Part shown: positions 19,414 to 47,019 of the stretch, one piece after another
How positions within the stretch are numbered: the first letter of the stretch is position 1
Layout of the letters: every line of letters begins with the position of its first letter
Origin: Patescibacteria group bacterium
GTDB taxonomy: Bacteria; Patescibacteriota; Microgenomatia; UBA1400; PJMF01
Length of the DNA: 64,000 nucleotides
NCBI GenBank assembly: GCA_049322575.1
Contig: JBMORQ010000027.1
Location: 9,092 to 73,091 of the forward strand
Direction: 5' to 3'
The notes under the pieces: model-generated
The model's input: the letters and a program-made list of their open reading frames with translations, nothing else
Told to the model about the DNA's origin: nothing
The model's database searches: none
Program-made: the position numbers and the translations under genes

Positions 19414-19543
19414 ACAGAAACCTTTCTGTTTTGTATTGGAGAACAATTCTGTCTTACAAAGGCGAAAATGACAACATTGAAAAAATGATACATAGTAATA
19501 CTTAATAGACTTACTGCCTGAAATGTAGTTCAATAAAAAAAGT

Positions 19544-30715: not shown

Positions 30716-32146
30716 TCATTTTTTTAAAAGAATGATTTGTAGTTTTTCTGTGCAGTGGTATTCCTCCCCAACCGAGGATTGCCCAAAAAGAGTCAACTCA
30801 TTGTAAGCAGTTTTGCCATGTTCATATTTTGAGTCATCCACCACCACCGCCATTTGTCGGCTTTGATCTTGATTGTCCTCAATATTCAACACTTTACAAC
30901 CGGCCTCACGCATTAAGAAACGATGCTCAGGGGCATTGTGGTAGGGGAGAATACCAGATTGCATGCTGACATACAGTGGTTGCCGGTTTTTGTCACAAAA
31001 ATCCCGATAACAAGTTTGCATATCAGCCACTGTGCGACGAGCTGGCAAAAAATATCGTTTAGTAAAAATCGGCAAAAGCCACAAAAGCGACAAAAGTGCA
31101 ACAAATAGCACAAGCTGCAACGGCAGCAAAGCCATAGTCATAATTAATAGACTCATCAAGCCAAAAATATAGTGTGATTCAATATTGAAAGGCAAAATAA
31201 AAGTTAAGACAAAGCAAATTAATGAAGCCAATGACAGAGAAAGTAAAGACCTGAATTGAGCGTGTTGTTTCCTTTTCCAATAAATCTGCAATCCAACAAC
31301 GATTAAAGCCATTAGCAACAAAGAAATTACCACCCCGACCCAACCTTTATAACCGACCAAATATCCCTCCAATGTCATCATTTTTCCCCAGAAACCAATG
31401 TCTACTTGCATAAGCGTTTGTCCCTCAATTAGCAACTTGGTTAAAACAAATTTATGTCTAAGCTCAAAAAATATAGTTGGCAAATTTAGCAACAAACCCG
31501 CCACTGAAGTTGCCACAACAACCAACCAGGTTTTTTTGCGCCAAAAAAACATCCCGACTAAAAAGAGCGACGCAACTGCCGGCAAAGCAGAATAATTAAA
31601 AGAAATAGCCGCTGCAACTCCCAGAGAGAAAGCCGTCAAATTTTTCCAATTCAACTGATGCCTCATCTCCAAAAAGGCAAAGCTAGCGATAATCATAAAT
31701 AGCAAGACAAAAGATGGATTCCAAACAAATCGATGTTGAATAATTGCTTGCGGTTGAAGAGTAACCAGCAATCCAACCAACCACAAACTCACCAACTTAG
31801 TCTTATCATTTCTATAAATCCAAATGCCAAAAAGAAAGGCGAGCAAATAACAAAAAATCACAGTGTAAATTGAAGAAAAAGCCGAATGATTTGTTAACAA
31901 GAAAGCTGGAAACAGCAGATAAAAATAAAAAGCACTTTGATTGAAGGAAAAAGCGCTGGTTTGTGGTCCAAGTAAAGGTGGCTTGCCAGATTCGTACCAA
32001 TCTAACAAGACCGAGAAATCTCGGCCCATGTCGTTGAAGAAGAGTAGGGAGGTATGAATGCTATAAAGGCGAAAAACAAGGAAAACTGCAATAGGTAATA
32101 CGAATAGTAGTAATTTCCAATTATTGACGACTAATCTCATAACCAT
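30716..32146 (-). CDS. Polytopic membrane protein, putative GT-C-fold glycosyltransferase.
   Basis: 476 aa, more than 10 TM helices. Possible first-loop acidic motif FNDMGRD. C-terminal soluble domain. Confidence 0.55.
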   Translation of the reverse strand: MVMRLVVNNWKLLLFVLPIAVFLVFRLYSIHTSLLFFNDMGRDFSVLLDWYESGKPPLLGPQTSAFSFNQSAFYFYLLFPAFLLTNHSAFSSIYTVIFCYLLAFLFGIWIYRNDKTKLVSLWLVGLLVTLQPQAIIQHRFVWNPSFVLLFMIIASFAFLEMRHQLNWKNLTAFSLGVAAAISFNYSALPAVASLFLVGMFFWRKKTWLVVVATSVAGLLLNLPTIFFELRHKFVLTKLLIEGQTLMQVDIGFWGKMMTLEGYLVGYKGWVGVVISLLLMALIVVGLQIYWKRKQHAQFRSLLSLSLASLICFVLTFILPFNIESHYIFGLMSLLIMTMALLPLQLVLFVALLSLLWLLPIFTKRYFLPARRTVADMQTCYRDFCDKNRQPLYVSMQSGILPYHNAPEHRFLMREAGCKVLNIEDNQDQSRQMAVVVDDSKYEHGKTAYNELTLFGQSSVGEEYHCTEKLQIILLKK

Positions 32147-32210: not shown

Positions 32211-33509
32211 GTGAGAACTATTGCGCAAAGAATTCTAAAATCAGAGGGACTAATACAATCTGCACAGATGGTCGTGGGTAACAACCTAGCAACCTTAATA
32301 TCTGCTGTTGCGCTCATCATGATTTCTCGTCTACTTGGACCAAGCATGTTTGGCGAATTTAGCGTGGGAATTTCTATAGCCATGATTTGGACAAGGTTTG
32401 TCGACTTGGGGATATCGACTGCCTTAATAAAACGAGCTTCTGAATCAACTGATCAGAAAAGAGTTAATGACTTATTTTCATTTACTATCAAAACCAAAAT
32501 GATAACTGCTGTGATCATGACGCTCATTGGCTTATTTGTTGTTAACCAAATAATGAACTTGATTGAGATAGGTGAAGAAAAAATTGTATATATGGGGATA
32601 ATTCTCAGTCTTGCTACGGTTGCCTATGACCAGTTAATTGTGATGCTCCAATCTCTAGGAAGGTTTTCGCAAGCAATTGTTGTCAATTTCTTTCAAGCAT
32701 CTCTCAAGCTCGCATCAGTTGCGGTTTTCTTTTTCACAAATATCTCCAATCCATTTCTGATCTTTTTGGTCTTCGCCGGCATACCCATCGTGCCAACTTT
32801 GTTCTCAAAAATGTTTATTCCCTCGTGGATAAAAATTGATTTATCAATACAAAATAAAGAAGTGAGCAAATTGATAATTTCTCTTGTTAAACACACCTCC
32901 ATTGGCATAATAGCTCTGGCTTTAATCGAGAATGTCAGTATCATTTTTGTGCGTGGTTTTATGGACGCCTATGATGCCGGCCTATTGGCTGGCGTAAGCC
33001 GTATCTCTACTTTTCTGCTTTTAGTGGCTGGCTCCCTAGGAAATGTCTTATTCGTGAGAGTGGCTAAATATAAAACAAAACAACACATTCTAGCCTATAC
33101 AAAAAAGGCCACGTTGTTTACGTTCCTAATATTAGTGTCTTTCATCACTTTTATCCCGTTCAGCAAGTTAATGATTCTTTATACTATTGGACCAGAATAC
33201 CTTAGTGGCAACCCGATTTTATTAATCTTAGCTGGGGCTTCTTTTATCAGCATCGCCACAGTACCACTATCAGCACTTTTTTATAGTTTCGAAAAGCCAA
33301 CGTTCTTCTCAGTTACGGGAGTAATCCAAGCTATTATCATCATTGGGGGAAACTGGATGTTTGTGCCTCAATATGGCCTGGTTGCTTCAGCCCTTGCAAC
33401 TCTCACCTCCCGCGTTGTAATGTTCTTTATGATCTCAATTTGGGGACTATCATTAGTCCGTCAAAAGTTTCTCTCTAAAAAACCGATCAAAAACCACCTA
33501 GCGCCTTAA
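32211..33509 (+). CDS. Polysaccharide biosynthesis protein / Wzx-like flippase (MOP superfamily).
   Basis: 432 aa, about 12 TM helices. N-terminal region typical of oligosaccharide-unit flippases. Confidence 0.65.
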   Translation: MRTIAQRILKSEGLIQSAQMVVGNNLATLISAVALIMISRLLGPSMFGEFSVGISIAMIWTRFVDLGISTALIKRASESTDQKRVNDLFSFTIKTKMITAVIMTLIGLFVVNQIMNLIEIGEEKIVYMGIILSLATVAYDQLIVMLQSLGRFSQAIVVNFFQASLKLASVAVFFFTNISNPFLIFLVFAGIPIVPTLFSKMFIPSWIKIDLSIQNKEVSKLIISLVKHTSIGIIALALIENVSIIFVRGFMDAYDAGLLAGVSRISTFLLLVAGSLGNVLFVRVAKYKTKQHILAYTKKATLFTFLILVSFITFIPFSKLMILYTIGPEYLSGNPILLILAGASFISIATVPLSALFYSFEKPTFFSVTGVIQAIIIIGGNWMFVPQYGLVASALATLTSRVVMFFMISIWGLSLVRQKFLSKKPIKNHLAP

Positions 33510-34341
33510 AGATTCCCGAAATATTTCTCATTCTTTCGATACAAATCGCTGGAAAATTCCGGATGATTTTTTTCCATCCCCAATTTCTGATGATTACTAA
33601 ACACCAGTTTTTAAAATCAAGCCAGCGTTTTTTGACCGATTCAATATTCATTGTTTGATGTCCTAAGTGAATTACTTCGACAGTCGGATCAACAATGTTT
33701 ATAAAACCAGCTTTTCTCAGACGGAGAGATAAGTCAACGTCTTCAAGATAACTTGTAAATAACTCAGCAAACAAGCCAACTTTTGACAAGGCATAGCGAG
33801 AATAAATAACACAAGCACCGTTAGTTGCATCAACTTCAACAGCTGTAGATGGTTTTTGAGTGATACATCTAGCTTTTCCTTTGTCCTCGATTTTGATACC
33901 AGCGGATTCTATAGTACCGTTTAGATCCACTATTAGTGGATTAATTGAACCAACTTTTCTAGGATCTTTATTCTTTGTTAAGTCTACTGACCAACCACTT
34001 TTTAAAATAACATCATCATTGACCGTACCGACCCACTCCCCAGAGCTTAAACGAAAACCTGTGTTAACAGTATCTGCAAAGCCCTTGTTTTGCTTGATCG
34101 GCACAAAACGTACCGAGGGATACTTGCATCGATATTCTTTTAGAGACTCATTGGTAACAGAGCTAGATACAATTATCAGTTCAGTTTTTTCTGATATTAA
34201 GTCAATGTTGTTAATTAAAAACTGATCGAGCAGGTGTTTGTGAAGGTTGGGGACGGTTATACTAATGATTTTTGATACAACTACCTCATCAATGGAAGAG
34301 TGTCGTCTCATATTATCTTCCAAGTCCTGAGTTTTTTGCAT
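33487..34341 (-). CDS. Glycosyltransferase family 2 (GT-A fold).
   Basis: DxD-type motifs (TVNDDV, EDVDLSLR). Confidence 0.75.
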   Translation of the reverse strand: MQKTQDLEDNMRRHSSIDEVVVSKIISITVPNLHKHLLDQFLINNIDLISEKTELIIVSSSVTNESLKEYRCKYPSVRFVPIKQNKGFADTVNTGFRLSSGEWVGTVNDDVILKSGWSVDLTKNKDPRKVGSINPLIVDLNGTIESAGIKIEDKGKARCITQKPSTAVEVDATNGACVIYSRYALSKVGLFAELFTSYLEDVDLSLRLRKAGFINIVDPTVEVIHLGHQTMNIESVKKRWLDFKNWCLVIIRNWGWKKIIRNFPAICIERMRNISGIFKALGGF

Positions 34342-34347
34342 AACAAT

Positions 34348-35637
34348 TCATTTAACAAAACGTTTCATGAAGTTGTCCAACAGATGACTAATACCTTTTT
34401 CAGGTGGAGTTTCATGCTGCAGGTTTGTTAGAAGCTCATAAGTTTTGTAACTTAAGTATCTAGCCTCATTTGCTGTCTGCTGTAAATTTGCGATCAGTCT
34501 CTCGTTTCTCTTAACACTAGCAATCGTTTCCACCCAACTAGAGTCATCTCGTGGTTCACTAATGCTATTCATCTTTGAACAAAAACAGTCCACTGCGTCG
34601 CCATCCAGATTGTAATAAACTTTTTTTGATACGACTTGCCAAGCCTGCTCATATTTTTTCTTGTCTGTTTTAATATCTGAAATCATTCCATTTAGCTCGC
34701 TAATGTTAGTGTCATCGATATGGACTGAAAGTTTAAAAACTTCATCGATTAATTTGTAAAATTGCAAATTTTTCTGATTGATTAGAAAGATGAGAGGTTT
34801 CTTAGTCAGCAGCGCCTCAAAAGTCATACTACTAACATCCAAGAAGAAGGCATCACTACCTCTTAATAGTTCCAGATTGTTGACACTACCCTCGAATGAT
34901 CCACCGTAAACAACAATATTCGATCTGGACTGGCTCAATTCTCGATATAAATCTACTATGTATTGAGGAGTGCTACCATGCAGTTTCACGATAAGTAAAA
35001 AGTCTGAATCGATATTTTTAGCAACTTCCAAACCAAGTGAGTCAACTGTTGTGTCACCAAAAAATGTCGGGAAATATGTAAAAACTTTTTTATATTTTCC
35101 TGGATAGAAAGATTTTATTTTGCGCTTGGCACTACTTACATCTTTGTCAGACGTATTAATAACATCATCGTTTTTTGTCTGACCGATTTGCCATAGTTTC
35201 CGGCTATCAACAGCCCGTTCGAGCAATAGTGACTCCTGATGTGGTCCGAGCGACGTAATGAAATCATAGCAGTTAAGCAAGGCGACTCTAGATGGTAAAA
35301 ACCAGCCAGTTTTCAAGCTTATACCATGAAACAACATAACCTTTTTCAGTGAGTAGAGAGCAGGAACAATATTATAAGACTCGAAAAAAAATATCCATCC
35401 GCTACGTCTGTTCAGAAAATCAATGGTCAAAGGAATATTGTGAGGCATGAACTCTGAGTTGTCGTCATCACCTACCAAACGATCCAACATCATGACTGGC
35501 AGTCCCACTTTCTTACACTCGCTATACACTTGTTCAGTCACCACCACGAAAGTGCCGCCTAATCTTCTATACAGCGGGAGTGCTTGCGATAAGTGGTGAA
35601 AAACATTACCTAAGAAAAAGTATATTTCCTCTTTCAT
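34348..35637 (-). CDS. TagF/TagB-like CDP-polyol:polyol-phosphate phosphotransferase (teichoic-acid-type polymerase/primase family).
   Basis: 429-aa GT-B-like protein. C-terminal half has the TagF-type arrangement (FYPGKYKKVFTYFPTF...KLHGS...). Translationally coupled (4-nt overlap) to the CDP-ribitol synthase gene. Confidence 0.55.
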   Translation of the reverse strand: MKEEIYFFLGNVFHHLSQALPLYRRLGGTFVVVTEQVYSECKKVGLPVMMLDRLVGDDDNSEFMPHNIPLTIDFLNRRSGWIFFFESYNIVPALYSLKKVMLFHGISLKTGWFLPSRVALLNCYDFITSLGPHQESLLLERAVDSRKLWQIGQTKNDDVINTSDKDVSSAKRKIKSFYPGKYKKVFTYFPTFFGDTTVDSLGLEVAKNIDSDFLLIVKLHGSTPQYIVDLYRELSQSRSNIVVYGGSFEGSVNNLELLRGSDAFFLDVSSMTFEALLTKKPLIFLINQKNLQFYKLIDEVFKLSVHIDDTNISELNGMISDIKTDKKKYEQAWQVVSKKVYYNLDGDAVDCFCSKMNSISEPRDDSSWVETIASVKRNERLIANLQQTANEARYLSYKTYELLTNLQHETPPEKGISHLLDNFMKRFVK

Positions 35638-36983
35638 TCTTTCCTTATATCAATAACTTGTCCAGTAACTTGAGAAAAAAGCACAGAAAGAGATTGCTCA
35701 GCAACAGTCTCGGCATCAAGCAATAGTTTCTTGTCCTCATTGGGAAAATTCTTTTGCCTCATCGGTGTGTCGGTCCTTGAAGGACAAATAATATTGACGT
35801 GAATATCGTCTTCATATAACTCATCAGCCAATGCTTGTACAAAGTTAACAAGAGCAGATTTTAAAGAGGAGTAAATTGCATATCCAGCGCGACCCCTAGT
35901 GTATGAGCTCGAGGAGAAAAACAATAAATGACCACCTCTGTTCAGGTAGTCGATGGCTGTCTTGGCTAGCATTATTGTTCCTGTGTAGTTGATGTTGACC
36001 TGTTCTCGAACTTCTTTTTCCTCCTGATCCTTAAAATTCTTATGTACCAAAATACCAGCGGTGATTATCACTGCATCAAACATACCCAATTTTTTGTGCA
36101 CACTCTCGAGAGCATGCTTAACTAATTGGCCATCACTAATATCGACACCATTTGATCTGGAAAAGCCACTCACTTTTGCTCCGTTTTCTTTACAAATATC
36201 ATAAATCGCCTTACCTATACCACTAGAATGACCGACAATAATAATTGTTTTATCCTGTAACAGTTCTTTACGTAAAGATCCAACATATGTTGATCGAAGC
36301 TGAAATATTTTGTCGGCAATGTGTATGTCTAAGGGGTAGGTGACCTTCATGTTCAAATCATCCCCCATTACGACATATACCTTCGATCCACAGTAACGAA
36401 TCACCAGGCCACAGTCATCCGTAACTGAGTAATCATTGTTTTCCTCAGCTAGCTGGTGAGCCTTCATAATTACGCGAAAAATGAAACCCTGTGGAGTTTG
36501 TCCCCTCATGTATGAAGAACGGTCAGGAATTTTTTCAATGTATCTATCCTTAACTTTTATCAGGGTATCGGCGGATGGAATTGCCACATCAACCGCTTCA
36601 TTGGCATCCAGGGCAGCGATCATTTCGTTGATGATTCTCTCAGATACGAAGGGCCTAACAGCATCATGTATCAGCACATAATCATCCGGAGATGCATTGA
36701 GAGATCTAAGAGCAATTTTTGATGACTCCTGGCGCGTAGACCCTCCAACCACAACTCTTATCCTTTGTAAGCCTTTTTCTCTGATGAATGACCTCACAAA
36801 ACCTTCATTCTCTGCATCGGTTACCAATACAACATCGTCGATCTGAGAGTGCCCAAGGAAAGCCTTAAGAGTGTGGAAAAATATTGGCTCTCCAGCCAGC
36901 TTGATGTACTGCTTGAAGGTTCCTTCTGACTTAAAACGTCCTCCTGATCCAGCCGAAAGTATTATTGCGTGAATTTTCATCAT
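35634..36983 (-). CDS. Bifunctional CDP-ribitol synthase-like enzyme: N-terminal IspD/TarI-type cytidylyltransferase fused to a C-terminal TarJ-type SDR reductase.
   Basis: N-terminus IHAIILSAGSGGRF is an IspD/TarI-like nucleotidyltransferase motif. C-terminal SDR has GHSSGIGKA (TGxxxGxG-like) and YxxxK (YSSLKSAL). Start is set at the internal Met; TAAAAT -10 lies 7 nt upstream. Confidence 0.7.
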   Translation of the reverse strand: MMKIHAIILSAGSGGRFKSEGTFKQYIKLAGEPIFFHTLKAFLGHSQIDDVVLVTDAENEGFVRSFIREKGLQRIRVVVGGSTRQESSKIALRSLNASPDDYVLIHDAVRPFVSERIINEMIAALDANEAVDVAIPSADTLIKVKDRYIEKIPDRSSYMRGQTPQGFIFRVIMKAHQLAEENNDYSVTDDCGLVIRYCGSKVYVVMGDDLNMKVTYPLDIHIADKIFQLRSTYVGSLRKELLQDKTIIIVGHSSGIGKAIYDICKENGAKVSGFSRSNGVDISDGQLVKHALESVHKKLGMFDAVIITAGILVHKNFKDQEEKEVREQVNINYTGTIMLAKTAIDYLNRGGHLLFFSSSSYTRGRAGYAIYSSLKSALVNFVQALADELYEDDIHVNIICPSRTDTPMRQKNFPNEDKKLLLDAETVAEQSLSVLFSQVTGQVIDIRKE

Positions 36984-37136
36984 TTTTTCAATTTTTAAAA
37001 CTAAATCATGGTAGCATATAGCAATCTCAAAACGAAATGACCTGTTTAGAGTCCAACAAAACAAATTAGAGGTTGCCAAATCAAGCTAACAATCTTTCAA
37101 CCAACTGCTAAGATTGCTTTTTTGATATATTAATCT

Positions 37137-38264
37137 TTAGCTACTTGAATGAATCGTCTCCCGCTCTAGTAGATGTTCAATTTGCTCCTCTGTTAAGGTG
37201 ATAAACTCCGATGGTCTCACTGACCGATCGTCTATGGTAAAGGCACTGGCATAAGGCTTGCCAAATTTTATCCCATCGAATGGAACCCCATGTCTCCGTA
37301 GCCAAGATAAGGTAACTGCCCCAACATCCTTTACAACTGAAGACTCATCATTGTTATGAGTCTTCATCCTTCGTGCTGTATGAAGAACAATTGTGTACCC
37401 CAACTCCTTATACTGTCTGAGTTTGTTTATTACAGCGGTGTTTGGTCGTTTTTTATTATATTTCGTGGTAGTATTGTCTTCAATCGTTATTGTGTTGTCT
37501 ATGTCAACAACCAAGGTTTTGTTTAACAAATTATCCCTTTTCATCTTTTTGTTACTAGTTCTCCAATAGCGTGATATTTGCTCTGGGGTTCCCATGGGTT
37601 TAAATAATTTTAAACGATCAATAACAACCCGATATCCATCATGGATATAGTCCATGTATAAGGGTGCAACAAAAAACTCATTGTTAACAGGACGCTCCAA
37701 TGCTCTTTTAGCATAGCTAAAAAAAAGCTCAGAATCTCTGAAAAAGTAGAATCCAACCGTTGCCCATGGAGAGATCCTCTTTTTCTCTTGGATGCTTATC
37801 ACTTCGTCTTTTCTATTTATCTTGCAGAAAGACCATGCGTCACCTGGTTGGCGCGAACATGGAATTATGCCCTCAATAGCTTTATCACTCATTAAATTTA
37901 TCAGAGTCGGACTCTGGAAATAGCTATCACAGTTATATATTGCTACTGAGTTTGATTTATTCATAAATTTTTCAACAACAACGGCCGTTTCCAATTGCCC
38001 CCTGGTTTGACCCATCAGCTCTATCCACTTCACATCATTAAATGGCAGCGAATCCTCGACTCTCTGCTGAAGTTTCCTCTTAATCTGATGGGATTTTTGC
38101 GAAATGATAAATAACTCATCATCGTGAAAAATTGGCAAAGACTCAATAGACCATTCAAGCAATGATTTGCCTCGCAAATTTATAAGTGGCTTGTGCAAAT
38201 GAGGTATCAATTTTTTAAATCTAGTACCTTCTCCAGCTGCACATAAAATGTATGTCACAGCCAT
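37137..38264 (-). CDS. Sugar-phosphate nucleotidyltransferase (LicC/MurU-like NTP-transferase) fused to a HAD-family phosphatase domain.
   Basis: N-terminus ILCAAGEGTRF is the G-x-G-T-R NTP_transferase signature. The C-terminal domain starts VVDIDNTIT (HAD DxDxT motif). Confidence 0.65.
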   Translation of the reverse strand: MAVTYILCAAGEGTRFKKLIPHLHKPLINLRGKSLLEWSIESLPIFHDDELFIISQKSHQIKRKLQQRVEDSLPFNDVKWIELMGQTRGQLETAVVVEKFMNKSNSVAIYNCDSYFQSPTLINLMSDKAIEGIIPCSRQPGDAWSFCKINRKDEVISIQEKKRISPWATVGFYFFRDSELFFSYAKRALERPVNNEFFVAPLYMDYIHDGYRVVIDRLKLFKPMGTPEQISRYWRTSNKKMKRDNLLNKTLVVDIDNTITIEDNTTTKYNKKRPNTAVINKLRQYKELGYTIVLHTARRMKTHNNDESSVVKDVGAVTLSWLRRHGVPFDGIKFGKPYASAFTIDDRSVRPSEFITLTEEQIEHLLERETIHSSS

Positions 38265-39736
38265 TTCATTCCTTTCTTGAACAAGTGCATGGCTTGAACA
38301 AATTGAGCTGACATGTGAGATAAACTATCTTGATGTAGAGGAATCATGCTTAAAAATAAAGTCGCTTCGAGAAGCCGTAGCTCTCTGATACTAATCCCAT
38401 TTTTTTCGACAAATTTGGTAAAAATCGAAGCTACCTCAAAATCTTGGAATTCTGGTTTGTTAAAATGCAAAGCAATTCCTTGTTGATCAAGTTGTAAAGT
38501 AAACATATCTGACATGATGTAATCATAGTTGCCAAGAAATGAATGAGATAGTTTGCAAATGTCATATATCTGTGGACGATAGGTCTCATCGATAGATTTG
38601 TTCCAGCCTCTTGGATCAATTAGCTTGAGTTGTTTTGACGCTGTGTCAAACATAATATTTGAGGCACATAGATCTCCATGAGAGAAATGTAATTCATTTC
38701 TACTTTTTTTCTTTACAATTTTCTCAACCGAGAAAAGAAGTTGGTCACAAAAATCATCGTAAGAACCAAAACCCTCAAGTTTTGCCAAAATCTCCAAACG
38801 ATCAATCTCCATCAATTTTTTTGTTTCTTGGATTCTTTTTCTTACTTTATCAACAAATAAAGAATGCATTTGCTCCCTGTAAACAACCCCATCAACCTTT
38901 TTTTTCGGAGCTGTGTCAAGACAATCTTGTATTTTTTCTAGAAAGTCTCTAAAGACTTCCTCTTTTTGAAAAGACCCATTTTTGAACAACACTGCTGCAT
39001 CAAAGGAGAAAATTTTTTCAACCTGATACGAAGCAGTTTGAGAGTCTTTGTAAAACACTCCCACATGAGGAAAAAAAGGTCTCAGTGAAGCAGGCACATT
39101 GGAAAGAAAGTTATACTCTGCCTCCATTTTATCAGTCTTAAATGATTGTTTTACAAAATAATAACAATTATCCACAGAAATGCTATTAAAATATCTTTTA
39201 TCGAGGTTCTGATTGAAAAGTAATATCGAATCAGTTGGATTCTCTAAATCCAACATCGATTGAGTTAAATCAACATCTATTGATTCTCTTTGTAAATCTA
39301 CCAATAGCATCTCATCGGAGTCTCTCTTTCTCAGAACTTCGAGATAGGGTACCGAAAAGATATATGGTTCTTCTAACCTCATCAGCTCATTTTTAAAAAA
39401 GGTTTTCTCGCTAATAGCAGCGGCTTTTTTTATTGCAAATTTTATTTTGTTCTCTCCGATGGGAAAAAAACGAGCGCTGTAATATATTAAGTTTGTATTT
39501 GATAAATCACCCTGGTAAATGAAACCATCGCTGATCGATTTATAGAGTTCCTTCCAGGTTACAACCTTGTCTGTCGTTAGTACAACATTGCGAGCTTCGA
39601 TGCCAAGTTTATCGATCAGGGTTTCAACATATTTTTTCTTACCTAATACTATCTCTGAATAGTTACTTACCCCAAGTTTACCTGATAAAAAGGAATTTGT
39701 AGAAAAACTTGTATTAATTATGTAAATTGTGTTCAT
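38255..39736 (-). CDS. APH/choline-kinase-fold small-molecule kinase (LicA/AmgK-like) with a long N-terminal extension.
   Basis: The C-terminal region has the Brenner motif HGDLCASNIMFD and downstream IDPRG. The N-terminal roughly 250 aa are of unknown fold. Confidence 0.6.
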   Translation of the reverse strand: MNTIYIINTSFSTNSFLSGKLGVSNYSEIVLGKKKYVETLIDKLGIEARNVVLTTDKVVTWKELYKSISDGFIYQGDLSNTNLIYYSARFFPIGENKIKFAIKKAAAISEKTFFKNELMRLEEPYIFSVPYLEVLRKRDSDEMLLVDLQRESIDVDLTQSMLDLENPTDSILLFNQNLDKRYFNSISVDNCYYFVKQSFKTDKMEAEYNFLSNVPASLRPFFPHVGVFYKDSQTASYQVEKIFSFDAAVLFKNGSFQKEEVFRDFLEKIQDCLDTAPKKKVDGVVYREQMHSLFVDKVRKRIQETKKLMEIDRLEILAKLEGFGSYDDFCDQLLFSVEKIVKKKSRNELHFSHGDLCASNIMFDTASKQLKLIDPRGWNKSIDETYRPQIYDICKLSHSFLGNYDYIMSDMFTLQLDQQGIALHFNKPEFQDFEVASIFTKFVEKNGISIRELRLLEATLFLSMIPLHQDSLSHMSAQFVQAMHLFKKGMKWL

Positions 39737-40610
39737 GACGATTCAGCTTTTGAATATTTCTTGTAAAGAATACTATAAGTATGCAGAAACAGATAAAAAC
39801 GAAAGCATAATAGATCGAACTGTATTGATTATTATACTGCAAACCAAAGTTATTGATAACATTGTCCAATACAAAAGGGTATGCCTGATCAATTCCCGTT
39901 GACGTGATGGTCATCACAGCATATAACTCAGTAACCCAGCCTAAAACGGTTAAAGAAAGCATTAAAAAAATCTTTTCCGCACTATTAATCCCTATTTCTT
40001 TAAATATCTTTTGTAAATGGCTAATTGCCAAAACAAGGTAATATGACAAACTTGAATGCTTTTTTCCTACCATATAAATCAAAAAGATTGAGAGTATCTT
40101 GGGCAATAAAACAATACCAAACCAAATAAATACTCCCAACAAAAGAGAAATTGTAGAGTTGGCTCTTAACGTACTCGTGCTCCCCGTGACAGCTTGTAAA
40201 AACAGGGGCGGTAACAGGATGATAAGATCGAAAAAACGGATGTAAATCATTACAGCAATAGTCTTCAAAAGGCAACTTTTGCAGTAACTACTAACTAATG
40301 CGACTAGACCAAAGTCTTTAATTAAGGGAAGCGTTACGTTGCCAAAAGAAGCTGACACAAACTGAAAAAAGATGATATTTTTTAGACCAACCCCTCTTAC
40401 TCCCATCAGCAACCAAATCCTTGCGGCACGAAACACGTGCGACAACAGATACAACAAAACAGAAAAGAACAATAGTTTAAAATTTGATTGGTTAACATTG
40501 AGCAATAAGTAGAAGATTGCCCACAAAAAATATACCGACAACAAAATCATCAAAAGTGGATGGGAGTTGGAACCATTGCGCTTGTGATCAGACATAGTAT
40601 TACTGTTCAT
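39714..40610 (-). CDS. Polytopic membrane protein, UPF0104 / lysylphosphatidylglycerol-synthase-TM-like (flippase-like).
   Basis: 298 aa, about 8 TM helices. Of the type commonly encoded next to DPM1-like GT2 enzymes. Overlaps both neighbours. Confidence 0.5.
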   Translation of the reverse strand: MNSNTMSDHKRNGSNSHPLLMILLSVYFLWAIFYLLLNVNQSNFKLLFFSVLLYLLSHVFRAARIWLLMGVRGVGLKNIIFFQFVSASFGNVTLPLIKDFGLVALVSSYCKSCLLKTIAVMIYIRFFDLIILLPPLFLQAVTGSTSTLRANSTISLLLGVFIWFGIVLLPKILSIFLIYMVGKKHSSLSYYLVLAISHLQKIFKEIGINSAEKIFLMLSLTVLGWVTELYAVMTITSTGIDQAYPFVLDNVINNFGLQYNNQYSSIYYAFVFICFCILIVFFTRNIQKLNRHEHNLHN

Positions 40611-41403
40611 AAACTAGGATTGAAAAATATTGCTTTAACGGTTTACCATTCATTTTTGGAAAGATATCAGAAGGCGCGACAAAATATCGAGCGAACAAAC
40701 CGAGAATATGCATACCCTGCTTAATTACTTTGGCATTACTGACTTGATCATCCTCTCTCCAAGTTATCGGGAAGAAAGCGAATACTGATTTTGTGTATAT
40801 TGTGAACAACAACAAATATACATTAAACGTCAAATCATCGGGAAAATAGTCAAAACGGCACTTCTTAAGAAATGTCACTTTATACATGTTTAATCCAGAT
40901 CCTGTATCGGTGATTTTTGATTGTGTAACCATAGAACACACTAAGTTAACAAGATAATTCCCATAAATTCGATATCTTGAATAACCACTTACGACTGACC
41001 GTTTATCAAACCTCGAACCGAGTAATGATGAAAAATTTCGATAAGATCCATCTGAGAGAATACTCAGAAGATCTTCAATATCAGCCTGATCGTCACCATG
41101 CAGAGTTATCAAATAGTCGTAGTTATTGTTAATTGCATAGTTAAAAGCCACCTTATGTGAGCCACCCAAATTGTAATTTGCGTTGTTCTGTAAAACTGCA
41201 ACTGGTTTTTTTAGATTTCTTGCAGACCTTATGGCTGCTGGGAGAGTCTTGTCTTGGCTCCTGTTCTCTACGATTAATATACCAGAAAGATAACTAAGTG
41301 CCCTACTAGATGACAACTTCTTTAACACTCTCACAATTTGTGTTTCGCAATTGTAAGCAGGGATGAACAATAGAATTGAGTCTTTTTTTTCTTTACTTTT
41401 CAT
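40600..41403 (-). CDS. Glycosyltransferase family 2, polyprenyl-phosphate sugar synthase (DPM1-like).
   Basis: ILLFIPAYNCETQI...D-x-D (LHGDDQAD). Start adjusted to the internal Met to remove a 200-nt overlap. Confidence 0.7.
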   Translation of the reverse strand: MKSKEKKDSILLFIPAYNCETQIVRVLKKLSSSRALSYLSGILIVENRSQDKTLPAAIRSARNLKKPVAVLQNNANYNLGGSHKVAFNYAINNNYDYLITLHGDDQADIEDLLSILSDGSYRNFSSLLGSRFDKRSVVSGYSRYRIYGNYLVNLVCSMVTQSKITDTGSGLNMYKVTFLKKCRFDYFPDDLTFNVYLLLFTIYTKSVFAFFPITWREDDQVSNAKVIKQGMHILGLFARYFVAPSDIFPKMNGKPLKQYFSILVYEQ

Positions 41404-42850
41404 CTCTATATTCCTTAACAGTGAATAGTTCTCCTTGTTTCCAGGTGCAGAATGGTAAAGAAACCACATCATTTTCATCTTTCGGGAGTCGTATTTGATT
41501 ATCCAACTCCGATGGTTTCCAAGGCATTGATAATACTCTTGCATGACCTTCTTGAAGAACAACAGAAAAAACTGGCCAAGTCCATAACCACTCATAACGA
41601 TTCTCGCTTAGAGTATCCAAATTAATCCTAGTTGTTTTATCTGCATTCAAGATTTGCTCGGTCGAAGACACGTAAAATCTTCTCCATCTGATGTTGTGAG
41701 ACATTTGCCAAAAACTGTGGAACAGTAGCATGATCGATAACACAAAAATGATTTGAGTATTGTGCACATATTTTGCGAAAAATTTCCTTGGCAAAAATAC
41801 TAATAGAGAAATAATAACTGATGCAACTGTAATCAGCACTCTCAAATCAAACTCACTTTGAGGAAACTGTCCATGTCTTGAAACCATGATGCACAAATGA
41901 ATTGTAAAAATCGGCACAAGCAGCAATGGAAGAATCAAATCAATAACAAACTTTCTCACTCTCATCTGCCGCTTCGTCTTTAACATCCGATTAATTATTA
42001 CGAAAAGGGCAACAAAAAAACCAAAGACAGAATATAGCAGGTTTGTTCTCTTCAAGTAGTAATCGAATGCGCCCATAATTTGAAATATTAAATTAATATA
42101 TCCTGAAGTCTGAGTTGCCACTGGATGTGAGACACCCCACCAAAAAGAATATGTCATTACACCCGCATATGTTGAAGCCAACAAAAGAAAGAATTTGTCT
42201 CTCTTCTTCAGATATCTAAAAATTGAATGAAGTGCGAATACCGGCGCAATGAATAAAGCCGTTTCATGACTTCTGAAAAGCAGCAATGAGAAAGAAAACA
42301 AAGGTATTCTTACGTCGTGGCCGGAATCAAGCATTATCGTGCAAGCAACTACCAATGATAGTATCGCAAAAAAACCAATAGCTGGATTAATGATGAATAT
42401 TGTGGAGGGGATAATAAAAACAATAAACAAAAAGAGGATTGCCAATGCCTCACCATACAACCTTTTTTTCGCCAAAAAAAACGTCGCGAAAAAAACCAAA
42501 AGAAATGGAAGAATAAAAACAGCTCCATCATACAGATAACCAAGCTCAGCATATCCAGTGATACCAAAAAATCTTCCCAGATTCATAGGAAACTGGTTTA
42601 TCAGATTAACAAAAAGTCTCTGGTGCTTTCCATCATCACTAAAGCCGTTGACTAAAGCGCTGACAAAAAAGAAAGAGCCGTCAGCATACATCGCTCTGTG
42701 TACAATTGTCGAGTGAAGTAATGAAATGAGATACAAAAGAGACGAGAATGCAAACAATCCAACGGTGGAAAAGTACACTCCCTGGGCGAGCAGACCCTCT
42801 CTTGAACCGAGGAATTGAGAAATTTTTTTCATAAAAAAAACAAATCTCAT
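41393..42850 (-). CDS. Large polytopic membrane protein, putative GT-C-type glycosyltransferase / polysaccharide polymerase.
   Basis: 485 aa, more than 12 TM helices. Confidence 0.5.
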   Translation of the reverse strand: MRFVFFMKKISQFLGSREGLLAQGVYFSTVGLFAFSSLLYLISLLHSTIVHRAMYADGSFFFVSALVNGFSDDGKHQRLFVNLINQFPMNLGRFFGITGYAELGYLYDGAVFILPFLLVFFATFFLAKKRLYGEALAILFLFIVFIIPSTIFIINPAIGFFAILSLVVACTIMLDSGHDVRIPLFSFSLLLFRSHETALFIAPVFALHSIFRYLKKRDKFFLLLASTYAGVMTYSFWWGVSHPVATQTSGYINLIFQIMGAFDYYLKRTNLLYSVFGFFVALFVIINRMLKTKRQMRVRKFVIDLILPLLLVPIFTIHLCIMVSRHGQFPQSEFDLRVLITVASVIISLLVFLPRKFFAKYVHNTQIIFVLSIMLLFHSFWQMSHNIRWRRFYVSSTEQILNADKTTRINLDTLSENRYEWLWTWPVFSVVLQEGHARVLSMPWKPSELDNQIRLPKDENDVVSLPFCTWKQGELFTVKEYRDEK

Positions 42851-45198
42851 TATGCGTGATTAATAACGTTTGCAATGATCTCGCCGTAATTTCGCGCAAC
42901 CTTGCTCCAACTACAGTGCTGTTCAAAATATTTTAGGCCATTATGTGACAGAGTTTTACGTAAAAAACTGCCACTAATCATCTGTTTGAAAACTTTAACT
43001 GGATCTCTTTCATCGATTATAAGAACCTCTTTTCCCGCTACTAAGTTCCAGCCTCTAACACCATCCTTATTCGCAATAATGGGTAAGCCGTACGATAGAT
43101 AGTCTGCAACTTTGACACTCGATCCACCCCCTCCCTTTGTTAGAGAAATAGCGATATCTGAACAAGAAAATATAATTTTTTTTGTTGTCTCGTTGACTAC
43201 TCCGGCAAAATGAACATTTTCCGGTTTATCACCAGAGTAAACAGTGCCAGCTCGACCAACAACCACAAAATCAATCTCAGGTAATTTTGGTGCTAGTGTA
43301 TTGCACAAATACTTCAGCCCCAACATATTGGGCATGTGGTCGCTTGCAATGAATACACAAACAAATTTTTTACCAAATAATTTCGTCTTCCATTTGCGCC
43401 TCAAAGCATTTTGTATATTTGAGTCTTCTTCCTTTGAAAAACCATTATTTACTACATATACGGATCCATTCAATTTTGAAAAATACTCCTTATCTTTTTG
43501 ACTTACACATACCACAGCTTCAGAATTTCTGGCTGCACTGTTTTCAAGTTTCTGCACCATTTTCAGCAAATTATCTTTAAAAGGGTGTGCCTCAAATATC
43601 TTTTCCTTTAGTTGATATTCACAATTGTGGCTCTCAAGAATAATTTTTTTATTAAGTTTTTCCGCTATGGGATATAAGTAGGGGTGACTAATTATTACTA
43701 ACTTTGCATAAATGGAGAGATCTCTTGCAAACTGCATATATAGTTTGTTTTTCTTAGCCATAAAAGAACTGACAACATCTGCAACACTCACATTAGCAAG
43801 GTTTCCATACCTTTCATCGTAGGAAATATGCTCCAGTGTCTTGGGAATACTTATTTCAATGAAATTATCATTTATGTATTTTTTCCTTAAAATCCCACGG
43901 TCGTTAAAACATAAATAAATGATTTTAAATCTATTTCCAGCTGAAAGGGCAGAGTAGAGACCATTGATCCTTGAAGCTCCTCCGTTGTTTGGGTTGGAAA
44001 TACTAAAATCATTTAGCACCAAAAGTGTCTCTCTATTATCATCCCTTTTTACTTGATTGATTTGCTCTCTTGCAAATTTTGCAATACTTCTCCAGGAAAA
44101 ATTCTTCCTGACATAATCCGATCCTAATTTGGATATATGCTTCTTAAGATCTTTGTTTTGTATCAAGCTTCTCAGATCCTCTGCAAAGTTTTTTTGATCT
44201 GAAACTACCACATGCTGACCACTTGTTAAATCCAACCCCCTCGCACCGCACTTAGTTGTGACGGTTGGTATACCCAAGGCTAAGTACTCAATCATTTTTA
44301 AATTGGTTCCTGATCCGTGAAACATAGGATTAATGGCAACATCAGTAGTTGCCAATAACTCATCTTTTCTGTCCTGATCAACTTCCCCTTCTAAAATTAC
44401 GTTTGGTGCCTTTTTCTTTATTGCACTACAACATAAGCCAGCAATCCGAAAGACGCAGTCTGTAAGAGATGGTGCCAGTTTTTCATTAATGAAGAGAACA
44501 GCCTCTAAGTTTGGTGGGTGGGCACTTCCAATAAAAAGGACCTCATTTCGTCGGACATCTCTTTTTCTATTTCCGTATTCGGCATCGTCAAAACCATTCT
44601 TAACCAAAACAATTCTTTTTTCATCTATTTCATACTCACGTAGAAAGCCATTTTTTTCCTCTTCAGAAATGGCAAAAACTAAATCTGATTCTTTAACTAA
44701 AACCCTCTCTAAAGACTCAACATAAGCCATACAGCGAATATCTTTCAATAAATAGCTAGCCATCTCTTTCTCTAGATTATAGCTATTGTAAATATGAAGC
44801 TTGGTGTCTATACCAAGAAACACATCAAAATCTGACATATAAGGCGAGTCATGAATAATGATGTTTGATTTGCTGTATAGTCTAAGAAATATTTCAAAAT
44901 ACTCATCATAGTAGTGCGCACTCAAGGCGCTTGAAATGCCAGACAATTCTTTACCAGCTTTCTTCTGAAAAAAATAGTTATAGATCTTTAAGAAATAGCT
45001 ATTCTGAGGAACCTTGTATTCCCTAAAATGCTCAGAATACTTTTCTCGCTTGGTTTTTTTATGGCTATGGGTATAGGAAAGAAGGGTGACATCGTAATAA
45101 CTACTCAAATACTTATAAAAATAGTAGTAACGAATCTCGCCTCCACTAGTTGGTGGCAACCTTGTCGAATAGTAGTTGATCACAAGAAGTTTTTTCAC
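42850..45198 (-). CDS. Tandem-domain GT-B glycosyltransferase (two GT4-like modules).
   Basis: 782 aa. Two successive Rossmann GT-B halves with E-x7-E-like regions (VAINPMFHGSGTNLKMIEYLALG; SLTKGGGGSSVKVADYLSYG). Confidence 0.7.
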   Translation of the reverse strand: MKKLLVINYYSTRLPPTSGGEIRYYYFYKYLSSYYDVTLLSYTHSHKKTKREKYSEHFREYKVPQNSYFLKIYNYFFQKKAGKELSGISSALSAHYYDEYFEIFLRLYSKSNIIIHDSPYMSDFDVFLGIDTKLHIYNSYNLEKEMASYLLKDIRCMAYVESLERVLVKESDLVFAISEEEKNGFLREYEIDEKRIVLVKNGFDDAEYGNRKRDVRRNEVLFIGSAHPPNLEAVLFINEKLAPSLTDCVFRIAGLCCSAIKKKAPNVILEGEVDQDRKDELLATTDVAINPMFHGSGTNLKMIEYLALGIPTVTTKCGARGLDLTSGQHVVVSDQKNFAEDLRSLIQNKDLKKHISKLGSDYVRKNFSWRSIAKFAREQINQVKRDDNRETLLVLNDFSISNPNNGGASRINGLYSALSAGNRFKIIYLCFNDRGILRKKYINDNFIEISIPKTLEHISYDERYGNLANVSVADVVSSFMAKKNKLYMQFARDLSIYAKLVIISHPYLYPIAEKLNKKIILESHNCEYQLKEKIFEAHPFKDNLLKMVQKLENSAARNSEAVVCVSQKDKEYFSKLNGSVYVVNNGFSKEEDSNIQNALRRKWKTKLFGKKFVCVFIASDHMPNMLGLKYLCNTLAPKLPEIDFVVVGRAGTVYSGDKPENVHFAGVVNETTKKIIFSCSDIAISLTKGGGGSSVKVADYLSYGLPIIANKDGVRGWNLVAGKEVLIIDERDPVKVFKQMISGSFLRKTLSHNGLKYFEQHCSWSKVARNYGEIIANVINHA

Positions 45199-45725
45199 TT
45201 TGAATTGACTAGTACATTGCTCTTTTTGGTTCCTCTAAATATCTTCCTTTGCAACCAACCAAAAAAATAATGAGTGAAACTTGATAATTTTACTACACCA
45301 TTTTTTTTCCCCAAATTTTCAGCTGATAATAAACTCTTGATTAAAAAAACTTGTGGATGGTATTCTCTGTAGAACATTGACTGCATAACTTTTTCCGACA
45401 CGTCCTTTGGCATGCTCTTTCCATATATATATGAATAAACTTTTTTCGGAAAGGAAATTGGATCACTATTTAAAAGTTCCTCAACATCGATTCTTTTTCT
45501 ATTTGTTCTAGAAAAATGATAGCGGATAATTTTATCAACTGTTTTTTTCACTTTGATGTGAATTGTTGACAAATAATAAATGAGACATTCGTATGTCAAC
45601 TCATTACTTTTTTTCTCAATAGCATTACTAGCAAAAACCTTTTCATCCACGTAATCAACCAGGTCAAAAATCTTTTCGTCATTTTTTCTATTTAAATCTT
45701 GAAGAGCGGTCTCAATTTTTGTCAT
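45195..45725 (-). CDS. Hypothetical protein.
   Basis: 176-aa ORF coupled to the GT4 genes. No motif recognised. Confidence 0.45.
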   Translation of the reverse strand: MTKIETALQDLNRKNDEKIFDLVDYVDEKVFASNAIEKKSNELTYECLIYYLSTIHIKVKKTVDKIIRYHFSRTNRKRIDVEELLNSDPISFPKKVYSYIYGKSMPKDVSEKVMQSMFYREYHPQVFLIKSLLSAENLGKKNGVVKLSSFTHYFFGWLQRKIFRGTKKSNVLVNSK

Positions 45726-45770
45726 GAGCTATTAAATTATGGTTGGCACAAATTACGAAAATACAAATTA

Positions 45771-46967
45771 TTAACAATTTTGCACGCTAGTAAGAAATAC
45801 TTTAGCACATTTTGAAAAATTATATGAATCAAGAATGTCATATTGCTTGTAGATGATTTTCTCAAGCATGGACGGATCATCGAGAATTCTTACTATATGA
45901 GCAAAGATGTCATTTTCCGAAGACACGGCCATGTCATTCTTAAGAATGCTATAGTTAAATGGAGATTCTTCGTGAGACAAAACCAGACAACCATGAAAAA
46001 TCGCCTCGAAGTTTACAATTCCCAGGCTTTCTTCTTTTGATGGATTGATAAAAACATCTATGTTCTGAAAAACTCCTGCCTTTTCATCCGTCGAAAAATT
46101 ATAGACAAACTCTGTCTGAGAAAATGATTTTCTCATTTCTTGTTGAATTTCAAGGTATGTATTTGTCTTAACTCCAGCCAATACTAATCGTAATTTCACG
46201 CCCTTGTTCGAGAAGATTTTTTTGTATTTTCTAAAAAAATTTGAAATCAATTCCAAATTTTTCCTTCTCGTTATCTGTCCGACATAGCCAATGGTAAACG
46301 TTTTGTTTGAAAAATTGTTTATTCTGCGCTTGATAACAGAAGCAATCTTCCTTTTTTGCTGATCAACATCTTTTAATTTATAGGGAGAAAAGGATAAATG
46401 CACAATTTTTCCGCTGGAAACTTTATATGTTGATTTCAATTCTCGTTGTTCTTTTTCTGACAAAACGAGTATTTTGCTGGATAAATCGAGTGTTTTTTGA
46501 AACAAATAGTTACCATTGTAGTAAGAAACGTTGTGGTAAGCGGGAAGCGCCACTAGCTTTTTGTGAAACTTTTTGGCAAAACACGCCGCATCAACAAACA
46601 ATCTTGTAGGCATCCCAGCAGCTATTATGAGATCTGAGCTGCGAATGATGTCACAAGCCTTGTCTGAATAAGACAAAATTGGACCAAAATACCACGGAGA
46701 AAAAATTGAAAACTTTCTCACAAGATTACCAAACAACTTATTAGCTATCTTTTGTTGAGTTTTTTTAATCGGTAGTCTGATTACATTTTTTTCATACCTG
46801 TTGATCGGTACGAAGTTTGAAAAAGTTTTGTAGCTATCAAGAGTCTCACCTTGTCCAGTGATAACAACCACCTCATGATCTGCCAACATCTCCACCAGCT
46901 GCTGTGACAGGTACTCAAGTCCGCCTTTTGCTGGCGGATAGCAATGTACAAAATATACTATCTTCAT
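45771..46967 (-). CDS. Glycosyltransferase family 4.
   Basis: N-terminus KIVYFVHCYPPAKGGLEY. GT-B C-terminal domain (FINPSKEESLGIVNFEAIFHGCLVL). Confidence 0.8.
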   Translation of the reverse strand: MKIVYFVHCYPPAKGGLEYLSQQLVEMLADHEVVVITGQGETLDSYKTFSNFVPINRYEKNVIRLPIKKTQQKIANKLFGNLVRKFSIFSPWYFGPILSYSDKACDIIRSSDLIIAAGMPTRLFVDAACFAKKFHKKLVALPAYHNVSYYNGNYLFQKTLDLSSKILVLSEKEQRELKSTYKVSSGKIVHLSFSPYKLKDVDQQKRKIASVIKRRINNFSNKTFTIGYVGQITRRKNLELISNFFRKYKKIFSNKGVKLRLVLAGVKTNTYLEIQQEMRKSFSQTEFVYNFSTDEKAGVFQNIDVFINPSKEESLGIVNFEAIFHGCLVLSHEESPFNYSILKNDMAVSSENDIFAHIVRILDDPSMLEKIIYKQYDILDSYNFSKCAKVFLTSVQNC

Positions 46968-47019
46968 GATAAAAAAGCTTTGTTTTTATTATGGTCTTGT
47001 CTGGGTATACCCTACGAAC

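Follow-up and report, generated by a model that had tools for sequence, protein, structure and literature searches.

Does a bacterium of the candidate phyla radiation (CPR) encode the machinery to place ribitol phosphate on a surface glycan? The question is raised by two adjacent genes in a 64,000-nucleotide stretch of DNA from a Patescibacteria group bacterium (assembly GCA_049322575.1, contig JBMORQ010000027.1, positions 9,092 to 73,091 of the forward strand), which was analyzed as a whole and is called the window below; all coordinates are those of the window. The first gene, 35634..36983 (-), encodes a 449-residue protein predicted to be a Bcs1-type bifunctional synthase of CDP-ribitol or a related CDP-alditol. 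The second, 34348..35637 (-), encodes a 429-residue protein that we take for a divergent, short TagF-like (Glyphos_transf) transferase of the GT-B fold, predicted to be a CDP-polyol:glycan polyol-phosphotransferase. CPR envelopes are poorly characterized, and their surface polymers probably mediate host attachment and phage recognition. We propose, with a probability of roughly 0.6, that the two genes form a polyol-phosphate module, making CDP-ribitol and transferring ribitol phosphate, within a large cell-surface glycopolymer cluster. The broader statement, that the locus encodes a CDP-polyol synthase plus a polyol-phosphotransferase acting on a surface glycan, is highly likely in our judgment, and we are less sure of ribitol specifically as the polyol. 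The proposal yields a testable prediction, namely that this CPR bacterium makes a glycopolymer carrying ribitol phosphate.

The domain content and motifs of the fusion protein can be read directly. Its N terminus is MMKIHAIILSAGSGGRF; a mechanical open reading frame (ORF) extends to a TTG at 37079, and the NCBI gene call gives the same 449 residues. An IspD/TarI-like cytidylyltransferase domain (residues 4–227, about nucleotides 36303..36974 (-); Pfam IspD, 1.7e-52) is followed by a classical SDR reductase domain at the C-terminal end (residues ~241–436, about nucleotides 35676..36263 (-); adh_short, 4.4e-31, residues 280–416). The N-terminal domain carries GSGGR (12–16), KQY (24–26), and DAVRP (107–111), which provide the GxGxR motif, the conserved lysine, and the D(A/G)xRP motif of Bcs1-type enzymes, whereas the reductase carries the cofactor motif GHSSGIG (251–257) and the catalytic YxxxK as YSSLK (371–375). 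Bcs1 has the same order, with an IspD-/GlmU-like cytidylyltransferase at its N terminus and a FabG-like reductase at its C terminus (PMC4017328), and it converts ribulose 5-phosphate, NADPH, and CTP to CDP-ribitol (PMC10299916). The first-pass annotation of this DNA had described the two domains and the YxxxK of the reductase correctly, and had called the protein a fused TarI-TarJ, CDP-ribitol synthase-like enzyme. The Bcs1-type architecture supports the synthase, and the TarJ half of the label has to go, since Staphylococcus aureus TarJ is a non-homologous analogue of this kind of reductase (PMC4017328).

Homologues of the fusion are numerous, with more than 7000 proteins at E ≤ 1e-30. The best 120 listed align with it almost from end to end at 44–51% identity, each with both domains. 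A few are named “bifunctional cytidylyltransferase/SDR family oxidoreductase” or [quoted passage not shown] one of these coming from another Patescibacteria metagenome-assembled genome (MAG); such names are annotations, not experiments. Both window proteins are already public at NCBI as 100% identical entries from a Patescibacteria group bacterium MAG, on a contig of 190 kb, which confirms their CPR origin; there, the fusion is named “2-C-methyl-D-erythritol 4-phosphate cytidylyltransferase,” that is, IspD of the methylerythritol phosphate (MEP) pathway of isoprenoid biosynthesis.

Several results on the cytidylyltransferase domain agree with the NCBI name and weigh against a CDP-ribitol synthase. 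The fusion scores 187.5 bits against TIGR00453 (ispD, a domain-level equivalog; cut-off 181.3) and 158.1 bits against NF001183 (ribitol-5-phosphate cytidylyltransferase; cut-off 166). Its PDB matches mix IspD (5ddt) with TarI (4jis, 5.9e-33; 6xhp, 7.5e-30), and the top match is the IspD of Bacillus subtilis. Judged by its sequence, the cytidylyltransferase domain by itself looks no different from an MEP-type IspD. Even so, we find it hardly credible that the fusion is the organism's MEP enzyme and its TagF-like neighbor a coincidence. The partner of the IspD domain is an SDR and not IspF, a Pfam sweep of the ORFs in the 64-kb window found none of the MEP genes Dxs, Dxr, IspE, IspF, IspG, and IspH, and the gene is coupled to that of a CDP-polyol transferase in a glycan cluster, a pairing of IspD-SDR with Glyphos_transf that is found in other genomes too. 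Grouping with IspD/IspF and an MEP gene context had both been raised early on as grounds for doubt; the SDR partner and the full-length two-domain homologues, some of them named for ribitol, speak against the former, and the sweep of the window against the latter. Three observations thus lead us to regard the protein as a probable CDP-ribitol synthase: its fusion to an SDR, its coupling to a TagF-like gene, and the lack of any MEP gene among the window ORFs. The public MEP-type name is probably a misannotation, which this assignment corrects.

We infer the identity of the polyol, and call it most likely ribitol and no more than that because certain pneumococcal capsule loci are proposed to make CDP-arabinitol and CDP-mannitol by similar two-step routes, with a reductase followed by a cytidylyltransferase (PMC1391919). 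The same module could thus serve another alcohol if, say, the SDR acted on xylulose 5-phosphate, giving arabinitol phosphate, or on fructose 6-phosphate, giving mannitol phosphate. The NF001183 score just under its cut-off is compatible with such a substrate, as is a residue of the transferase pocket considered below. We regard another alcohol as possible but unlikely, given that Bcs1, the sole biochemically characterized IspD-SDR fusion that our literature searches turned up, makes CDP-ribitol, and that the names of full-length fusion homologues, although they are annotations rather than experimental results, are ribitol-specific.

The synthase and transferase genes share four nucleotides. 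The overlap, which had been noticed in the first reading of the DNA, is an ATGA stop/start at 35634..35637 (-) (...AAA GAA TGA / ATG AAA GAG), with the purine-rich stretch AAGGAAAG directly upstream, and on sequence grounds it couples the two genes translationally.

The transferase is a remote member of its family. It matches Pfam Glyphos_transf (PF04464) over residues 120–348 with 4.7e-10 and 39.4 bits (gathering threshold 22.1), so that IspD, adh_short, and Glyphos_transf, the three families expected for this gene pair, are all matched by Pfam; NCBI names it “CDP-glycerol glycerophosphotransferase family protein.” A word-indexed homologue search with this protein alone returned one relative, and exhaustive HMMER against 1.84 billion cluster representatives returned 98 at E ≤ 1e-3 and 27 at E ≤ 1e-30. 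A subfamily profile was needed because the single-sequence phmmer search of the PDB gave nothing meaningful (NarL, E 1.3); a profile of 30 subfamily members matched the solved TagF-like enzymes Cps3D (5.5e-19), TagF (2e-17), and TarL (1.2e-16). In an AlphaFold2 model built from a 21-sequence alignment (pLDDT 84.6, pTM 0.78), residues 5 to about 360 form a GT-B fold; the model is closest to TagF, to the CroT domain of Bcs3, and to TarL, with 12–16% identity in the structural alignments. The TagF/TagB-like nature of the protein thus stands, although the likeness, first seen only in the C-terminal half, extends by profile and structure over residues 1–360. UDP-GlcNAc 2-epimerase was considered as an alternative identity and gave similar fold scores; the sequence profile, the histidine pair described below, and Pfam all point to Glyphos_transf. 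For PDB entry 9IQW, the literature search found no paper.

Beyond the GT-B fold, the protein has a C-terminal extension of about 70 residues (360–429; 34348..34557 (-)), modeled with pLDDT 54–79 as two long helices, 366–409 and 412–428. The subfamily homologues are 350–390 residues long, and the extension occurs in no aligned homologue. Its final helix is amphipathic, with a hydrophobic moment of 0.54, and the extension may have a role in membrane contact or oligomerization.

TagF-like enzymes rely on a pair of histidines, which mutagenesis has shown to be essential in TagB, TagF, TarL, and CroT (PMC10901376; PMC10299916); the pairs are H444/H584 in TagF, H300/H433 in TarL, and H96/H233 in CroT. 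Whether the 429-residue protein has such a pair was a point on which its assignment depended, and the pair is present, as H104 (codon 35326..35328 (-)) and H220 (codon 34978..34980 (-)), both invariant in the two subfamily alignments of 30 and 21 sequences. H104, the putative catalytic base, lies in the loop F-H104-G-I-S107-L-K109 (35311..35331 (-)), in which G105 and K109 of HGxxxK vary little or not at all across the subfamily. The loop corresponds in form to W-H444-G-T-P-L-K of TagF and to the H96 loop of CroT; in alignment with canonical 810-residue GT2-Glyphos_transf proteins, its counterpart is THG(V/I)P(L/F)K. H220, in VKLHGS, aligns with H584 of TagF and H433 of TarL; the mutant chain 3l7m has alanine at this position.

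The residue three positions after the first histidine (H+3) has been described as a determinant of the polyol pocket, being Pro447 in the glycerol-specific TagF and Gly99 in the ribitol-specific CroT (PMC10901376; PMC10299916). TarL and TarK have an expanded G-A-F loop instead, and TagB and TarB break the rule, having glycine (PMC10901376). The window protein, with a loop of TagF length, FHGISLK, has the putative polyol-pocket residue Ser107, which is neither the proline associated with glycerol nor the methionine of the subfamily members coupled to TagD, and to that extent speaks for our reading. The residue also counts against ribitol, in that the pocket lacks both the glycine of CroT and the GAF loop of TarL/TarK, and serine at H+3 in so short a loop is not among the documented ribitol signatures; it is the pocket residue that, matching neither the ribitol nor the glycerol signatures, favors an alcohol other than these. 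Among the relatives, methionine (THGNMLK) is found in loci L004, L005, L006, L011, and L013, which have a TagD-like gene, and in L007, where the upstream flank is truncated. Serine is found in L001, L002, and L012, which have an NTP_transf_3 gene, in L014, in the P0229 locus, and in the window protein beside its IspD-SDR gene. A different Glyphos_transf protein, encoded next to the IspD-SDR gene of another Patescibacteria genome, has WHGVGLK, with a glycine of the CroT type.

A simple rule by which glycine means ribitol and proline means glycerol was not taken as decisive, as the TagD-coupled Glyphos_transf protein in L014, a member of another subfamily, has glycine at H+3. The Met/Ser trend points the way that donor matching would predict, yet lends it weak support, because it coincides with the clades, the sample is small, and L014 is an exception; following the clades, the split may reflect ancestry rather than specificity. 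Both points temper our reading.

Recurrent synteny, the strongest result of the comparison, fits a functional pairing of synthase and transferase. Thirteen loci from relatives were examined. In 12 of them a nucleotidyltransferase gene lies beside the TagF-like gene or a few kilobases away, the exception being L003, which has LicD only, and in most relatives it immediately adjoins the TagF-like gene, often with a 4-nucleotide overlap. The nucleotidyltransferase family varies with lineage. Saccharimonadales have a TagD-like gene, abutting in L004, L005, L006, and L013 and about 3.4 kb away in L011; Omnitrophota, Crenothrix, and metagenomic contigs have a MobA-like NTP_transf_3 gene (L001, L002, L012, L014, and the P0229 locus); IspD-SDR is the form found in the window. 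This adjacency fits the coupling of a donor synthase to its phosphotransferase. Two other genomes, one of them of Patescibacteria, have an IspD-SDR gene adjoining a short Glyphos_transf gene or one gene from it, and one of these two pairs lies beside a Polysacc_synt flippase gene.

The same variety of partners raises the question of whether the window transferase uses the product of its neighbor. It might use CDP-glycerol, or an NDP-alcohol or NDP-sugar produced by a kinase-like and an NTP_transferase-HAD protein, with CDP-ribitol serving another transferase. The closest clade members (L001, L002, and L012) are coupled to MobA-like NTP_transf_3 and those of Saccharimonadales to TagD, the polyol loop has the length of that of the glycerol enzyme TagF, and in the window an NTP_transferase (NTP_transf_3, 4.4e-07) is encoded one gene away. 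Because the ATGA overlap is with IspD-SDR, the window has no TagD-like gene (by tblastn) and, among its ORFs, neither a further Glyphos_transf nor a LicD-type phosphotransferase to use CDP-ribitol, IspD-SDR adjoins Glyphos_transf in two other genomes, and H+3 is neither proline nor methionine, we consider a donor other than that of the coupled synthase improbable.

The genes that prompt this alternative lie immediately upstream of the synthase and could supply the donor of the transferase instead, which has to be set against our reading. An NTP_transferase fused to an HAD phosphatase (37137..38264 (-)) is encoded 153 bp upstream; TIGR01689 (7.4e-31) places its phosphatase part in the “EcbF-BcbF capsule biosynthesis phosphatase” type, and its PDB matches are 1xpj (2.5e-23) and 4evw (3.7e-11). 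The next gene, 38255..39736 (-), overlaps it and encodes a small-molecule kinase-like protein of the protein-kinase fold with the catalytic loop HGDLCASN...IDPRG; matches to Choline_kinase (1.2e-4) and, weakly, APH(3') are both confined to this loop, and the protein has no sequence relatives in the PDB. The combination of a kinase, a nucleotidyltransferase, and a phosphatase suggests a second route of precursor activation, in which the NTP_transferase-HAD protein would probably be an activating enzyme. The gene set loosely resembles pneumococcal tarIJ-licABC, with matches too weak for a call, and a lic1-like phosphocholine pathway of the pneumococcal type was rejected on the same grounds (choline kinase, 1.2e-4; LicC, 0.079; no LicD in the window). 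LicB choline transporters belong to the EamA/DMT superfamily, and the window encodes two EamA/DMT-family transporters, at 50607..51467 (-), heading the strand block of the glycan cluster, and at 17027..17893 (+).

Is the transferase a polymerase? The study of TarL describes an extra N-terminal domain in TagF-like polymerases, which the primases TarB and TarF lack (PMC10901376), and the window protein begins directly with the GT-B fold. Moreover, in Saccharimonadales loci, a subfamily member stands beside a separate GT2-Glyphos_transf protein of about 810 residues, which looks like the better polymerase candidate there; this coexistence suggests a primase-like role for the subfamily. From the bare GT-B fold without the N-terminal domain of polymerases, we conclude that the enzyme most likely makes a single or limited polyol-phosphate addition of the TagB/TarB/TarF type and is probably not a poly(ribitol-phosphate) polymerase. 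The conclusion is kept conditional because CroT, also a bare GT-B domain (residues 1–373), acts in a polymerase (PMC10299916).

The two genes belong to a same-strand glycan cluster of about 20 kb, running from about 50588 down to 33487. From PMT-like GT-C to the 298-residue membrane protein (39714..50588 (-); ORFs and Pfam), it encodes, in order, the PMT-like GT-C, an ABC-2 permease, an ATPase, a GT4, a 176-residue protein without assignment, a 782-residue double GT4, a 485-residue membrane protein, a GT2 resembling polyprenyl-phosphate-sugar synthases, and the 298-residue membrane protein; the kinase-fold protein, the NTP_transferase-HAD protein, the synthase, the transferase, and another GT2 follow. 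This last GT2 gene (33487..34341 (-); Glycos_transf_2, 1.6e-08) lies 6 bp downstream of the TagF-like gene, and an independent Logan contig has this gene order too. A convergent gene for a Wzx-type (Polysacc_synt) flippase (32211..33509 (+); PF01943, 2.7e-09) overlaps its end, and a flippase gene also adjoins the Glyphos_transf gene in two relatives' loci.

An ABC-2 glycan exporter of the TagG/TagH and Wzm/Wzt class is encoded further upstream on the module strand (permease 47753..48532 (-), ABC-2, 7.5e-21; ATPase 47020..47769 (-), ABC_tran, 1.3e-25). The first-pass annotation called it TagGH-like. The exporter itself is real, and the label is less secure: the top NCBIfam matches of the ATPase are TagH models (4.4e-71 and 1.1e-59), at 240 and 202 bits against equivalog cut-offs of 538 and 320, galactan Wzt nearly equals them at 194 bits, and the permease is best matched by Wzm/RfbD and KpsM. 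The exporter is separated from the module by eight genes and about 10 kb, and the Wzx-like flippase is much nearer.

This distance bears on the link between module and export, and the gene content of the window bears on the wall. No TagO/WecA-type initiator, TagA, or LCP ligase was found among the window ORFs, for which reason membership in a canonical wall teichoic acid (WTA) pathway is not established, although such genes may lie elsewhere in the genome; both points have to be set against our reading. UppP/BacA is encoded at 4688..5449, and Mur ligases elsewhere in the window. A true polymerase making poly(ribitol-phosphate) WTA for a TagGH-like exporter, as in S. aureus, would agree with the TagH models heading the ATPase matches, with TagF and TarL being among the best structural matches, and with the bare GT-B domain of CroT. 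We nevertheless consider it very unlikely, as the transferase has no N-terminal accessory domain, its Saccharimonadales homologues coexist with the ~810-residue GT2-Glyphos_transf protein, the many glycosyltransferases and the Wzx flippase point to a heteroglycan, and TagO, TagA, and LCP are missing from the window.

The proposed ribitol-phosphate module would then work as follows. By analogy with its family, the SDR domain would use NADPH to reduce a ketopentose 5-phosphate, most likely D-ribulose 5-phosphate, to ribitol 5-phosphate, which the IspD/TarI-like domain would activate with CTP to give CDP-ribitol. In the transferase, the role of base would fall to H104 and contact with the pyrophosphate to H220, after the pattern of TagF, TarL, and CroT, and the architecture suggests that one or a few ribitol-phosphate units would be added, as a linker, a component of the repeat unit, or a decoration. 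We infer the acceptor, and any linkage to the wall, from the gene context: the neighboring GT2 and GT4 enzymes would assemble a glycan, probably anchored on undecaprenyl phosphate, for export by the Wzx-like flippase or the ABC-2 transporter. Synthesis and export of a glycan containing ribitol phosphate or a similar polyol phosphate, as put forward in the first-pass annotation, is supported by the IspD-SDR fusion, the histidine pair, the glycan cluster, and the synteny in relatives.

Parts of the cluster hint at glycosylation beyond the cytoplasm. The polyprenyl-phosphate-sugar-synthase-like GT2 (40600..41595 (-)) has weak similarity to AglJ and PpgS, the PMT-family GT-C lies at 48768..50588 (-), and the ORFs 41393..42850 and 30716..32146 encode large multi-pass membrane proteins that no Pfam family matches. 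By analogy with the GtrB/CsbB plus GT-C logic, GT2, PMT-like GT-C, and membrane proteins suggest extracytoplasmic glycosylation within the same cluster. The 782-residue protein (42850..45198 (-)) appears to contain two tandem GT4-type modules (Glyco_trans_1_4 and Glyco_transf_4, two stretches each). A promoter and terminator scan of 33000..38500 gave no excess over shuffled sequence (promoter-like, 11 vs 14.9; terminator-like, 5 vs 3.2), and PADLOC on the unannotated cluster proteins gave no defense-system match besides an insignificant one to MkoA.

Several observations outside the cluster may be recorded here. A glucan-metabolism block at 8264..12765 (-) encodes GH15 glucoamylase-like, GH57, and GT4/GT5 glycogen-synthase-like proteins and adjoins a BadF/BcrA-type ATPase gene. 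A 157-residue protein (19020..19493 (-)) has a cytochrome b5-like heme/steroid-binding domain (5.1e-20), which is unexpected in a reduced CPR genome. At 52880..62888 (+), uvrB and uvrA are followed by genes for a transglutaminase-core protein (58414..60321), a uvrC-like ORF (60140..61513), and a 7TM_transglut protein; the transglutaminase-core and uvrC-like ORFs overlap by about 180 nucleotides.

Teichoic-acid-type polymers were at first described here as a Firmicutes/Actinobacteria trait, the presence of which in a CPR-like genome would be notable. The first part is too narrow for TagF-like enzymes, which also build Gram-negative capsules and O-antigens (PMC10901376), and the second is overstated, since equivalent or fuller loci occur in other Patescibacteria and Saccharimonadales genomes. 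Public Saccharimonadales MAGs contain loci with TagD, TagF-like, and ABC-2 genes, some of them with a GT2-Glyphos_transf polymerase candidate, and in four loci of the Saccharimonadales type the gene of the subfamily member has ABC-2 exporter genes at its flank, with an ATPase 43–47% identical to that of the window. Metabolic models of TM7 predicted a capability for teichoic acids (PMC6609349), and another study proposed rhamnose polysaccharides in their place for Patescibacterium (PMC11809585). Experimental proof that any CPR organism makes a teichoic-type polymer did not come up in our literature search. Both enzyme families are already known, as is their occurrence in the CPR, and current understanding is not overturned.

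Two further arrangements were seen in relatives. In L014 (2814..6808) and in the P0229 locus, two synthase-transferase pairs stand side by side: a TagD-like gene, a Glyphos_transf gene (FHGLGVEK), and LicD, then the subfamily member (EHGTSDK) with an NTP_transferase gene. Taken at face value, this would imply several different alcohol-phosphate additions to one polymer. L006 has, at 2919..4702 (-), a gene for a stand-alone IspD-family cytidylyltransferase (5.5e-38), then one for a protein of the extended-SDR epimerase/dehydratase family; these lie about 3 kb from the TagD and TagF-like pair and may represent another route to a CDP-polyol or CDP-sugar.

Because one subfamily is coupled to different donor synthases across lineages, it offers a small, tractable system for the study of donor specificity in TagF-like enzymes. 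As a speculation that we think will probably not hold, the rare subfamily might consist of donor-flexible “alcohol-phosphate” transferases with a specificity determined by the H+3 residue, methionine with TagD and serine with IspD-SDR or MobA-like enzymes, which here would place ribitol phosphate on a non-WTA surface heteroglycan. Given the PMT-family GT-C and the GT2 of the cluster, that glycan might in turn be carried by a surface protein, such as an S-layer protein or a pilin, or receive more sugars outside the membrane. If true, this would be a bacterial parallel to the ribitol phosphate on O-mannosyl glycans and a possible determinant of recognition between episymbiont and host or by phages.

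Among characterized systems, Bcs1/Acs1 of Haemophilus influenzae (EC 1.1.1.405 / 2.7.7.40), set beside the window fusion by its published description, has the same domains in the same order at a similar size, and its gene likewise adjoins that of a ribitol-phosphate transferase of the TagF-like kind, within a glycan locus that includes an ABC exporter. The host of Bcs1 is a Gram-negative pathogen and its partner is the three-enzyme protein Bcs3, whereas the window belongs to a CPR bacterium with a stand-alone 429-residue transferase; in a further difference from the H. influenzae system, no PRPP-dependent ribosyltransferase was recognized in the window. TarI/TarJ of S. aureus and Streptococcus pneumoniae share with the fusion the TarI-like domain and the overall logic of the reaction, but TarJ is a separate protein not homologous to the window SDR, so that “fused TarI-TarJ” is a functional analogy only (PMC4017328).

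For the transferase, the primases TagB, TarB, and TarF are the nearest in architecture. They are bare GT-B proteins of about 360 residues that keep both histidines, and their expected reaction, in which a lipid-linked intermediate receives one unit or a limited number of them, is the one predicted here; the window protein differs in being remote in sequence, in a donor that is likely not CDP-glycerol, and in its unique 70-residue C-terminal helical tail. Two ribitol-phosphate transferases have solved structures, CroT of Bcs3 from H. influenzae type b, with Gly99, and S. aureus TarL, with the expanded GAF loop. The window protein differs from them in Ser107 and in having neither a polymerase-type accessory domain nor a fused partner enzyme. 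The TagD, TagF-like, and ABC-2 loci of Saccharimonadales/Saccharibacteria are also among the closest known, with a transferase of the same subfamily (~27–30% identity by tblastn), a homologous exporter, and the same logic of coupling a donor synthase to its transferase; they differ in having a TagD-like synthase, which would make CDP-glycerol, methionine at H+3, and an exporter immediately adjacent to the pair.

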